Positions 61,212 through 64,000 are shown, counted from the stretch's first letter. The stretch is 64,000 bases of DNA from an uncultured Pelagibacteraceae bacterium (GCA_902605215.1 CACLBX010000003.1:4378-68377); one strand, 5' to 3'. The notes: generated by a model from the sequence alone, not told the origin. Made by a program: numbers and translations.

Positions 61212-63254
61212 CTAATTTTTATATTTTTCTAAGCATAGCAAGAAAGCATTATCCAACGAGCTTTCTTCCAAAGCATTTAATCGTCCACTTTTTCCAGCAT
61301 GACCACCTACTAAATTCATCTTCATTAATATTGGATTATCTGAAGTACTATTTTCTCTGAGTTTTGGGACATATTTGGCTGGTTCGTAATACTGAACTTG
61401 AGAGTCATAAAGACTGGATGTGACTAATACAGCGGGATAATTTGAAGGCTTAATGTTATCGTAGGGCGAATAACTCTTAATATAATTATACTCATCTTCA
61501 TTTGCTGGATTACCCCATTCTTTATATTCAAAAGTAGTTAGGGGAATTGTTTCATCTGACATTGTAGTCACTACATCCACAAAAGGAACTGCTGAAATAA
61601 TACCTGTATATAATTCTGGCTCCATATTAATGATTGCTCCCATTAAAAGACCACCAGCACTTCCACCCATTGCATATACATTTTTAGAATTGCCATACCC
61701 TTGATTGATTAGTGATTTTGTTGCATCAATAAAATCATAAAATGTATTCTTTTTATTAAAGATTTTGCCATCATCGTACCACTGTCGACCCATCTCAGAG
61801 CCACCTCTGATATTGGCGATAGCAAAAACGAAACCCCGATTGAGTAGGGGTAAGATGGACGTTCTAAAAGCTGCATCAATTATAATGCCATAAGACCCAT
61901 AGCCATAAATAAGGATAGGAGCTTGAGATAAGTCAGTTCCTTTTTTATATACTAGTGATACAGGAACTTTTGTATCATCACGGGCAGTAATTTTAAGTCT
62001 TTCCACCTCATATAGATTTTCATCGTAATTGTTTACAGGCTGCTGCCATGCCAGTTTAATCTTACCTGACTCTATATCCTCTTTGAATATTGAACTAGGT
62101 TTCTTTGGACTCGAATACCCATAGTAAAATTCAGTATCAAGGTACTCATTATTGGTTGCTAAATAACAAGAAAAGGCAGGGTCACTAAATTCAATATAAG
62201 TCCTATCGAGTGTTTCTCTGTTAATTTTTACTATCTTGGGCAGACCGTCCTCTCTTATCTCTAAATAAAGATATTGAGGAAAAGTGACAAAATCTTCAAT
62301 TAAAATGGCATCATTATGCTCAACAACAGTTTGCCAACTATTAAAATTATTAATTTGATCTATGGTAAATTTTAAAATTGAGAAATTTTTTTTATTTTCT
62401 GCATTACTGCTGACATAGAAACACTCTGGTGTGTCTTCAATGGAATAAAGATGCTTATCGGAACGTTTGAGTACACAAAACGGTTGACCGAGTTCATCAT
62501 CTAGATCAAGTAACCATGTCTCTGAAGACTCAGTTTTACTAGTATAGATATTTAAATATTTTTTTGTACGTGACTCATAAATATGAAGATGAAACTCTGA
62601 GTCATTTTCTTCATATATTAAAACATCTTCTTCAGGATCAGTTCCGATCTTGTGCTTAAAAACTTTATTTTCTATTAAAGTTACAGAATCTTTTTGAGCA
62701 TAATAAAATGAAGTATTTTTCTTATCCCATACAATACTTCCAGAACTTCTCTCAATACTACTATCTATTATTTTTCCCGTTTCTAGTTCTTTTATTTTTA
62801 TATTATATTCGCGGCGACCTGATAAATCTTCGGCATATGCAATGAAAAGATTATTTGGTGAGGGAGTTATTGAAGTAACATTTATATAATCCAAACCCTC
62901 GGCCAGTGCATTTACATCTATAACTAATTCTTTATTACCATTTTGTTCGCGGTAGTATGTTTTGTATTGTTGATCAGAGTTGATTTCGGAATAATAGAGA
63001 TAGTCTCCGTATTTAATTTTCATTGAAACTTCATTCGGCGGTATGAAGCTGACTAATTCTTCATATATTTCTTTACGGCTATCATTATTATTCGCAAACC
63101 AATCCTCTAAGTATTTATTTTCTTCTTCTAAATAGGAGATTATTTCTTTATTTTTACGAGTATCATCCCTCAACCAATAATAATCATCAATTCGTTCATC
63201 GCCATGTGCAATATGAATTTTAGGAATTTTTTTTGGTCGTGGAGGTCTCATCAT
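61212..63254 (-). CDS. ptrB: Oligopeptidase B / prolyl oligopeptidase family S9A serine protease
   Basis: HGDERIDDYYWLRD N-terminus, beta-propeller region, GGSAGGLLMG (catalytic Ser) and a C-terminal GGHAG. The ORF-track TTG at 63287 is probably not the start; I use ATG 63254. Confidence 0.88.
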   Translation of the reverse strand: MMRPPRPKKIPKIHIAHGDERIDDYYWLRDDTRKNKEIISYLEEENKYLEDWFANNNDSRKEIYEELVSFIPPNEVSMKIKYGDYLYYSEINSDQQYKTYYREQNGNKELVIDVNALAEGLDYINVTSITPSPNNLFIAYAEDLSGRREYNIKIKELETGKIIDSSIERSSGSIVWDKKNTSFYYAQKDSVTLIENKVFKHKIGTDPEEDVLIYEENDSEFHLHIYESRTKKYLNIYTSKTESSETWLLDLDDELGQPFCVLKRSDKHLYSIEDTPECFYVSSNAENKKNFSILKFTIDQINNFNSWQTVVEHNDAILIEDFVTFPQYLYLEIREDGLPKIVKINRETLDRTYIEFSDPAFSCYLATNNEYLDTEFYYGYSSPKKPSSIFKEDIESGKIKLAWQQPVNNYDENLYEVERLKITARDDTKVPVSLVYKKGTDLSQAPILIYGYGSYGIIIDAAFRTSILPLLNRGFVFAIANIRGGSEMGRQWYDDGKIFNKKNTFYDFIDATKSLINQGYGNSKNVYAMGGSAGGLLMGAIINMEPELYTGIISAVPFVDVVTTMSDETIPLTTFEYKEWGNPANEDEYNYIKSYSPYDNIKPSNYPAVLVTSSLYDSQVQYYEPAKYVPKLRENSTSDNPILMKMNLVGGHAGKSGRLNALEESSLDNAFLLCLEKYKN

Positions 63255-63292: not shown

Positions 63293-63366
63293 TGGTGCCC
63301 CATACCGGTTACGCTCCGGTGGCTGACCATTACCAATGGCCTGCTTTACTATTAAGCGAATGGGGC
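63293..63366 (-). tRNA. tRNA-Thr(GGU)-like gene with non-canonical D and T loops
   Basis: 74-nt minus-strand cloverleaf. Acceptor GCCCCAU/AUGGGGC, D stem GCUU/AAGC, anticodon stem GGCCA/UGGUC with loop UUGGUAA, T stem ACCGG/CCGGU, discriminator A and encoded CCA. 41 of 74 nt are G/C, in AT-rich surroundings. T loop is AGCGUAA rather than UUCRAnn, and the D loop AAUAGUA lacks GG. Confidence 0.6.
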
Positions 63367-63556
63367 CGAGTTTTTACACTTCATATCAATAACTTATAAA
63401 GTAGATTTTGTAAATTTTTTGGAGAATACCATGAGGTCTAATTGCTTTTTAATCGGGGACAATTGTTTTCACAAAATATACTATGGTAGTTGCTATTTGA
63501 TAACTTAAGTGACTATATTTTCATGTATAATAAACAATATTTAAGCGAGAGATAAT

Positions 63557-64000
63557 TTGAAAAAATATTCAGTATTTAGTCTTTTTAAGAATGCTCTTAA
63601 TCATCATAAGGATTGGGATGTGGCATGGAGAGATCCTGAGCCCAAGAAAGAATATGAAGCCGTTATTATTGGTGGAGGTGGCCATGGTTTAGCGACAGCT
63701 TATTATTTGGCAAAATATTACAACCTTAGAAATATCGCTATCCTTGAAAAAGGTTGGATTGGTGGAGGAAACGTTGGAAGAAACACAACAATTTTAAGAT
63801 CAAATTACATGCACGATGCAAATAATTTGTTTTATGAAAAAGGTATGCAGATGTGGAGAGACTTAAGTCAGGAACTGAATTACAACGTCATGTATTCACC
63901 AAGGGGAATCTTAAACCTTGCCCATTCAGACGCTCAGCTAAATGCATACGCTAGGAGAGGTAACTCAATGAAGTTGAATGGTATTGATGCATCTCTATTG
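63557..64000 (+). CDS. soxB: Sarcosine oxidase beta subunit family flavoprotein, N-terminal part (continues beyond window)
   Basis: Not in the ORF track. TTG 63557 opens a frame that runs to base 64000: PEPKKEYEAVIIGGGGHGLATAYYLAK..LEKGWIGGGNVGRNTTILRSNY matches the SoxB FAD-binding N-terminus. Confidence 0.85.
   Translation, partial: MKKYSVFSLFKNALNHHKDWDVAWRDPEPKKEYEAVIIGGGGHGLATAYYLAKYYNLRNIAILEKGWIGGGNVGRNTTILRSNYMHDANNLFYEKGMQMWRDLSQELNYNVMYSPRGILNLAHSDAQLNAYARRGNSMKLNGIDASLL

Follow-up and report, generated by a model that had tools for sequence, protein, structure and literature searches.

A probable elongator tRNA-Thr(GGU) with a remodelled elbow in SAR11 clade IV and TMED127 bacteria

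The stretch of DNA analysed here, called the window throughout, is 64,000 nucleotides long and comes from an uncultured Pelagibacteraceae bacterium (GCA_902605215.1, CACLBX010000003.1:4378-68377), whose genome (G000) is an 874 kb draft, 53% complete, with 33.5% G+C. Near the end of the window the minus strand forms a 74-nt cloverleaf with the anticodon GGU, a tRNA-Thr gene (Table 1), that reads GCCCCAU-U-C-GCUU-AAUAGUA-AAGC-A-GGCCA-UUGGUAA-UGGUC-AGCC-ACCGG-AGCGUAA-CCGGU-AUGGGGC-A-CCA. Its stems of 7, 4, 5 and 5 bp have all 21 pairs formed, one of them G-U, the connector between the acceptor and D stems is 2 nt, and stem lengths and connectors are standard. The gene keeps U8, A14, U33, A37, G53-C61, C56, G57 and A73, and it encodes the CCA. 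An earlier, sequence-only reading of this DNA had described a complete cloverleaf with U33, A37, discriminator A and CCA, and had singled out the one-G D loop AAUAGUA and the T loop AGCGUAA; all of these features are present on the sequence as it described them. The tRNA is followed on the same strand by ptrB and preceded by a divergent FAD oxidoreductase gene that runs off the window. The gap to the ptrB start codon, previously given as 39 nt, measures 38 nt (first ATG at 63254).

Table 1. Features of the tRNA-Thr(GGU) locus in the window, and related loci in other genomes
Feature	Position	Strand	Evidence or remark
tRNA-Thr(GGU) gene, 74 nt including CCA	63293..63366	-	Rfam RF00005 47.6 bits; custom model R1 98.1 bits; covariation
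Encoded CCA; discriminator A73	63295-63293; 63296	-	Sequence
T loop AGCGUAA = A54 G55 C56 G57 U58 A59 A60	63309..63315	-	Sequence and model alignment
Variable region AGCC, 4 nt	63321..63324	-	Alignment of types
Anticodon loop UUGGUAA: U33, GGU (63334-63332), A37, A38	63330..63336	-	ARAGORN -ps90 = Thr(ggt)
D loop AAUAGUA = A14 A15 U16 A18 G19 U20 A21	63347..63353	-	Sequence and model alignment
Motif TTTACA-N17-TATTGATA, candidate promoter, -48 to -18 from tRNA 5' end	63384..63414	-	Conserved upstream
ptrB, oligopeptidase B-type S9 peptidase, downstream	61212..63254	-	Pfam Peptidase_S9_N, Peptidase_S9
FAD oxidoreductase N-terminus (sarcosine-oxidase-beta-like), divergent upstream, runs off window	63557..64000	+	Pfam DAO
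Island loci of relatives	L129 (G046:C1:106500-111500), L130, L131 (G041:C2:178500-189500), L132, L133		
tRNA-Thr(GGU) loci with T loop GUCAGUA	L134-L139 (e.g. G100:C1:66915-66988), L055 (G193)		Rfam 41-47 bits

With relaxed filters the Rfam tRNA model RF00005 matches the gene end to end (model positions 1-71) at 47.6 bits (E = 3e-9), well above the gathering score of 29, which answers in the affirmative the covariance-model check that had been proposed, and folding by minimum free energy likewise gives the cloverleaf (z = -2.6). The score is about 20 bits under that of canonical alphaproteobacterial tRNA-Thr(GGU) and is the weakest of the 20 RF00005 matches in the genome, the others lying at 57-73 bits. 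Rfam with standard filters, run over the whole 64-kb window, missed the gene. ARAGORN, the other check proposed, gave a divided result: at default settings it reported no tRNA in the whole window, and at -ps90 (threshold 90%) it called tRNA-Thr(ggt). A chance cloverleaf is ruled out by the RF00005 score, the minimum-free-energy fold and the covariation described below. Elsewhere in the same genome, at G000:C13:15678-15752, ARAGORN reports a "tRNA-Cys(aca)" in very AT-rich DNA; it has no Rfam tRNA match and is probably a false positive.

The G18-Psi55 and T54-A58 contacts of the tRNA elbow are among the most conserved in biology, and the elbow is read or needed by RNase P, EF-Tu, the ribosome, the CCA-adding enzymes and modification enzymes. 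Neither G18-Psi55 nor the T54-A58 reverse-Hoogsteen pair can be formed by this gene, which has A18, G55, A54 and U58. In the T loop, AGCGUAA stands where the consensus is U54 U55 C56 R57 A58 N59 N60; in the D loop an A takes the place of G18 and G19 is retained, leaving one G only. The G19-C56 pair, a purine at 57, G53-C61 and U8-A14 are all present. The variable region AGCC sets C48 against A15, a non-standard Levitt pair that accompanies this loop type, whereas relatives with other T loops have U48. The elbow changes are thus G18 to A, U54 to A, U55 to G, A58 to U, A at both 59 and 60, and U48 to C.

Outside the elbow the gene is close to its canonical counterparts. It has in common with canonical alphaproteobacterial tRNA-Thr(GGU) a 7-nt D loop, the anticodon loop YUGGUAA, A73, CCA, G1-C72 and C2-G71, together with G19, C56, R57 and G53-C61. 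The canonical molecule differs in being 75-76 nt long, with G18 G19 and a variable loop AGGUC that gives G15-C48, whereas here the length is 74 nt and A18, AGCC and C48 against A15 are found; in contrast to the canonical form, this tRNA would offer no substrate for m5U54 or pseudouridine-55, and no A58 pair. The identity elements for threonyl-tRNA synthetase (ThrRS) in E. coli are G1-C72, C2-G71, G35 and U36. All are present here by sequence, plus A73, and across 13 distinct sequences of this tRNA (see below) G1-C72 is invariant and C2-G71 occurs in 12.

The same 74 nt recur unchanged in two metagenome contigs and in G016 (AG-333-C14), an independent genome from a single cell. AG-333-C14, AG-422-B15 and AG-422-N09 are placed in GTDB order Pelagibacterales, family AG-422-B15, which corresponds to "SAR11 clade, Surface 4" in SILVA (PMC12416821, supplementary file 9), and the organism of the window belongs to this family. 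The tRNA-His of the host lineage has G1:U72 and A73, as is typical of Alphaproteobacteria. D, anticodon, variable and T loops identical to those of the window's gene are found in 38 of 59 other AG-422-B15 genomes, and most of those that lack the gene are incomplete drafts. A scan for the exact loop combination over one genome per species (185,579 species) returned 67 loci, 66 of them cloverleaf tRNAs and one a chance match that forms no cloverleaf (L064, Omnitrophica), the lone match described as non-SAR11. By their stems, 38 of the 66 are of the AG-422-B15 type, 26 are of a second type, whose stems differ in all arms, and two are singletons; altogether the odd-loop tRNA-Thr(GGU) is present in 65 species-representative genomes. 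The second stem type belongs to the order TMED127 ("Rickettsiales S25-593" in SILVA), a different alphaproteobacterial order (PMC12416821). In the singletons L086 (MAG SP3058) and L126 (MAG SRP092796_co6_467) these loops are combined with stems different again from those of both types. The odd loops also occur in more than 100 marine metagenome contigs, and the exact pattern was found in none of 341 genomes of the sister family Pelagibacteraceae. The oddity reported for this one gene is therefore real and is not local, being a trait of AG-422-B15 and TMED127.

The surroundings of the gene are much less constant than the gene. The FAD oxidoreductase gene, soxB, adjoins it only in G000 and G016, and ptrB does so in about 9 of about 95 related loci, with another genus represented among them; in other relatives it has, for example, an ABC-2 permease gene on one side and an HlyD gene on the other, or it adjoins a defence island. 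No terminator-like site was found between the tRNA and ptrB in the window, and because the 38-nt gap holds none, co-transcription of the two is plausible here. The sequence-only reading had raised the alternative of a tRNA-like cis element for ptrB, that is, a leader, processing signal or transcription start module. The short same-strand gap without a terminator would suit such an element, as would the tRNA-then-ptrB order in a few relatives, another genus included. The adjacency is limited to a minority of relatives, the identical tRNA stands in other contexts in most of them, and the tRNA is also present in TMED127; moreover, a leader would have no need of a conserved anticodon, ThrRS identity elements or CCA. 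We consider a ptrB element very improbable, and a ptrB leader was rejected on the ground that the neighbourhood is not conserved.

Upstream of the tRNA lies the motif TTTACA-N17-TATTGATA, which is common to the window, G016 and the flank of the full tRNA in the island-bearing relatives L010, L012, L013, L020 and L023. A sigma-70 consensus scan did not flag it, and returned only weak promoter and terminator sites, not above shuffled expectation. From its conservation we regard the motif as a candidate promoter brought by integrative elements, and the 5' flank in the window may derive from such an element. In island-free relatives the tRNA begins 15 nt past the stop codon of the ABC-2 permease gene. 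Five relatives (L129-L133) carry an exact 38-bp copy of tRNA positions 1-38 at 2.6-11.5 kb upstream of the full tRNA, and the cargo between includes genes of defence type, either a PLD-SNF2 helicase and an Eco57I/MmeI-type methylase, or a T5orf172 protein and a DUF4116 protein. The 38-bp repeats are what integration into the 5' half of the gene leaves behind, and they show that this tRNA is used by integrative elements; the locus looks like a hotspot for integration and defence. In two islands that were inspected, no integrase was seen. A SAR11 tRNA-Thr has been proposed in a preprint as a pelagiphage att site (10.1101/2019.12.14.876532); here neither the 5' half of the tRNA nor the odd T arm was present in 2.9 million viral contigs, and a phage as the vehicle is unsupported, with no viral-contig match to either half.

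The use of the tRNA as an integration site in relatives, with its 38-bp 5'-half repeats and the tRNA-Thr att proposal (10.1101/2019.12.14.876532), bears on another alternative raised by the sequence-only reading, namely that the gene is a decaying tRNA pseudogene or integration-site remnant; its tRNA score, the lowest in the genome, and its rejection by default ARAGORN point the same way. The true att remnants, however, are the separate 38-nt half copies, and the gene itself has all 21 stem pairs intact. Among 13 distinct sequences 99.6% of cells are paired and 15 of the 21 pairs have changed on both sides, a result equalled by 0 of 500 shuffles. The commonest AG-422-B15 sequence differs from that of the window at 10 positions, and these make up five compensatory pairs (6-67, 7-66, 29-41, 49-65 and 51-63). 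Between lineages about one-third of stem positions differ, and the letters of the D, anticodon, variable and T loops are frozen, an invariance that is partly by construction in the case of the anticodon loop, which was fixed in the pattern of most collection scans, and of the D loop, whose letters were fixed in the species-level scan. Only the BLAST and covariance-model searches were free of pattern constraint, and the BLAST search, with no letters fixed, recovered the same loops. With the loops invariant in two orders and in more than 100 metagenome contigs, the stems covarying in 15 pairs and no other GGU gene present, a pseudogene or att remnant is ruled out, and we put its probability at next to nothing. 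More generally, because the loops are conserved and the stems covary across lineages, decay, chance and a local artefact are excluded.

The changes in the two loops are also coupled. No match to the odd T loop combined with a normal GG D loop (AATGGTA with AGCGTAA) was found in 241 million metagenome records. In a second metagenome scan the T loop was left free apart from C56, while the A18 D loop, the anticodon loop and AGCC were held fixed, and at least 120 contigs matched. Among the matches listed, 109 form a full cloverleaf and have the A18 D loop; 107 of these have AGCGTAA and two AGCATAA. Four others are chance matches without a cloverleaf, and none of the listed tRNAs joins the A18 D loop to a canonical T loop. 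The sole T-loop variation among the matches listed is therefore G57 to A57, which follows the purine rule of ordinary T loops, and because position 57 varies purine-for-purine only, the sequences suggest that the stacking of residue 57 between 18 and 19 is retained. Taken over these lineages, the comparison shows a new set of elbow nucleotides that is, to judge from its conservation, under strong purifying selection and whose parts occur only together. The co-varying, functional variant that the sequence-only reading preferred to decay is likewise favoured here, given invariant loops, compensatory stems, coupled D- and T-loop changes and, as described next, the lack of any other GGU gene.

That reading had also asked whether a canonical tRNA-Thr(GGU) exists elsewhere in the genome, and none was found in near-complete genomes of either lineage. 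Genome G052, of the same genus and 100% complete, has both U34 and G34 tRNAs for Val, Ala, Gly, Ser and Leu, and its Thr set consists of UGU and the odd-elbow GGU gene only. The canonical-elbow Thr(GGU) pattern is absent from G052, G057 and G010 (at least 98% complete) and from two TMED127 genomes; a covariance model derived from the tRNA scores 96-99 bits in each of those genomes, and its next matches are Thr(UGU) and Phe. Likewise, no second GGU tRNA was found in G052, G057, G010, G401 or G405. The standard elbow (TTCRA with GG) is present in the 19 other real tRNAs found in G000 and in 29 of G052, and Thr(UGU) is canonical in its elbow. It had been envisaged that related genomes might have the unusual loops in all tRNA-Thr genes, making them a lineage trait; a lineage trait they are, but one of the GGU isoacceptor only.

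Loss of U54 and U55 with G55 in the T loop recalls the staphylococcal non-proteogenic tRNA-Gly species, in which G55 for U55 is a hallmark and which bind EF-Tu and the ribosome poorly (PMC7826273). The three staphylococcal tRNAs, NP1-3, resemble the present tRNA in having G55, in lacking pseudouridine at that position, and in D and T loops whose alterations are kept throughout a lineage. They differ in keeping U54 and in being paralogues that stand beside proteogenic tRNAs of the same anticodon, whereas here the gene is the sole GGU gene, so that the extra paralogue typical of a non-proteogenic tRNA is missing; they serve Fem transferases in the Gram-positive cell wall, whereas the present hosts have streamlined Gram-negative genomes. 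The likeness raises the possibility that the present molecule is a threonine-accepting tRNA withdrawn from translation, for example an aminoacyl donor or regulator, with the ACN codons read by Thr(UGU). Its anticodon could then persist for ThrRS recognition alone. In principle Thr(UGU) could serve the whole ACN box, and one tRNA may suffice for a four-codon box in these bacteria, Pro having only a U34 tRNA seen in these draft genomes. Nor does codon usage demand a G34 reader: translational selection is not visible in any four-codon box, Pro included, either genome-wide or in ribosomal-protein, rpoBC and fusA genes, so that codon usage does not separate the two readings. Withdrawal nevertheless appears unlikely. 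Codon demand speaks for decoding by the GGU gene, though weakly: 47-48% of Thr codons are ACU or ACC, and the ribosomal-protein and rpoBC genes show no depletion of ACC. The gene takes the place of the ordinary Thr(GGU) of sister lineages, with the same compact body, and is no extra paralogue; the genomes of the host family, at about 1.2-1.3 Mb, are streamlined and minimal, and their roughly 30-34 tRNA genes leave no isoacceptor to spare; and U33, A37 and the 5-bp anticodon stem are canonical. To our knowledge, no non-ribosomal pathway that depends on Thr-tRNA is known in such bacteria.

In most Alphaproteobacteria tRNA-Thr(GGU) is a canonical 75-nt gene with the D loop AGUGGUA, the variable loop AGGUC and the T loop UUCRAUY. 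By covariance-model search, a canonical 76-nt gene is present in five Pelagibacteraceae genera and in one g7 genome, and a compact form of 74 nt whose T loop is normal in members of the largest Pelagibacteraceae genus and in another g7 genome; the odd Thr(GGU) has its compact body in common with this sister family's Thr(GGU). Judged from the sequences, the T loop of tRNA-Thr(GGU) has departed from the consensus on several occasions among reduced Alphaproteobacteria, and full remodelling of the elbow is common only to AG-422-B15, TMED127 and the two unplaced lineages. ThrRS identity is 64% within the order and 52-56% to TMED127 and follows the species tree; therefore the distribution of the odd tRNA is discordant with that tree. 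Recent transfer between AG-422-B15 and TMED127 was rejected, the stems being near saturation with 26-28 of 42 positions identical, and any transfer must therefore be ancient. It is possible that the tRNA was inherited anciently and replaced in Pelagibacteraceae, or that it was anciently transferred. Co-transfer or co-evolution with ThrRS was also rejected: besides the identities that follow the species tree, the TGS domain is absent in AG-422-B15 and kept in TMED127, the AG-422-B15 enzyme (L314, G052:C1:596846-598528) starting about 64 residues later than those of Pelagibacteraceae and TMED127 and lacking this N-terminal domain. We also observed, on contig C33 of G000, a thrS copy that appears to have an internal deletion of residues ~73-436, probably a single-cell assembly chimera.

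Other departures from the T-loop consensus were seen in this isoacceptor. A T loop GUCAGUA (G54, G58, A60) with a GG D loop is found in the tRNA-Thr(GGU) of one additional genus and of about half of the species sampled from the Pelagibacteraceae genus that is largest (loci in Table 1). This variant (g6, probably Pelagibacter) is likewise a compact 74-nt gene of the same isoacceptor with 54 and 58 changed, A60 and a low Rfam score, but it keeps G18 G19, U55, C56, A57 and U48, a milder departure, and it appears to be independent of the AGCGUAA type. In three other small-genome families (L285 in G539, L289 in G506 and L310 in G481) the T loop is UCCGAUU, with C55 and so no pseudouridine-55.

Two further groups of tRNAs are informative for comparison. 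The yeast initiator tRNA has an elbow made of A20, A54 and A60, and the A54/A59/A60/C48 network works (PMC10602860). The T loop of initiator tRNA-Met agrees with that of the present tRNA at five of seven positions (A54, C56, G57, A59 and A60), and C48 and the lack of nucleotide 17 are also alike, a likeness of sequence. The eukaryotic initiator nevertheless keeps U55, (m1)A58, G18 G19 and A20, where G55, U58, A18 and U20 are found here; it works in the P site, whereas the present molecule is a bacterial elongator-type tRNA with a Thr anticodon. The second group comprises tRNA-Pyl and the mitochondrial-type compact tRNAs, functional elongators which resemble it in partial loss of G18G19 and T54-Psi55-C56, short D and variable loops and a compact core (PMC1851642). 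tRNA-Pyl represents the complementary solution, in which U54-A58 persists and contacts 18-55 and 19-56 are lost, and that of D. hafniense also has G55 (PMC1851642), whereas here G19-C56 is kept, 54 and 58 are exchanged, and stems and connectors are standard.

The reading that we prefer, and to which we would give a probability of about 85% on the sequence comparisons above, is that the gene encodes a tRNA-Thr(GGU) that works in elongation and whose elbow has been remodelled. It would be transcribed, possibly from TTTACA-N17-TATTGATA and probably together with ptrB, and the transcript would be trimmed to the encoded CCA. ThrRS would charge it through the standard identity elements, and the charged tRNA would read ACC and ACU codons on the ribosome. 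Alternative contacts linking the D loop to the T loop would still offer the G19-C56 platform to RNase P, EF-Tu and the ribosome. We conjecture that these contacts are A18-G55, A54-U58, G57 stacked between 18 and 19, and A59 and A60 with A15-C48; the swapped A54/U58 pair, which in the sequence-only reading would preserve the reverse-Hoogsteen pair, would sit differently in the loop backbone. Such a network would be similar to the A54/A59/A60/C48 elbow of the eukaryotic initiator.

A bolder proposal, which we hold tentatively and at somewhat less than even odds, is that AAUAGUA, AGCC and AGCGUAA constitute a second self-consistent elbow for bacterial elongation, with an A54/A59/A60/C48 arrangement like that of eukaryotic initiators and A18-G55 in place of G18-Psi55, and that it had a single origin and was either inherited by or passed between SAR11 clade IV (AG-422-B15) and TMED127. 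Integrative elements bearing the 5' half of the tRNA could have assisted any transfer. If true, this would be the first elongator tRNA of a free-living bacterium without T54, Psi55, A58 and G18. Searches of the literature on SAR11 and Pelagibacter tRNA T loops and on tRNA-Thr, which took in a study of SAR11 tRNA features, turned up no account of the trait.

For annotation the consequence is that SAR11 clade IV genomes will seem to be without tRNA-Thr(GGU) when ARAGORN or Rfam with default filters is used, and the tRNA counts that enter genome-quality standards will be too low for this clade. As a rare genomic change common to AG-422-B15 and TMED127, the remodelled elbow bears on the disputed relationships of, or on gene exchange among, the streamlined marine Alphaproteobacteria. 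It also offers a natural system for testing what the elbow of a tRNA must provide, in a molecule that is conserved and apparently essential in very abundant free-living bacteria of the ocean.
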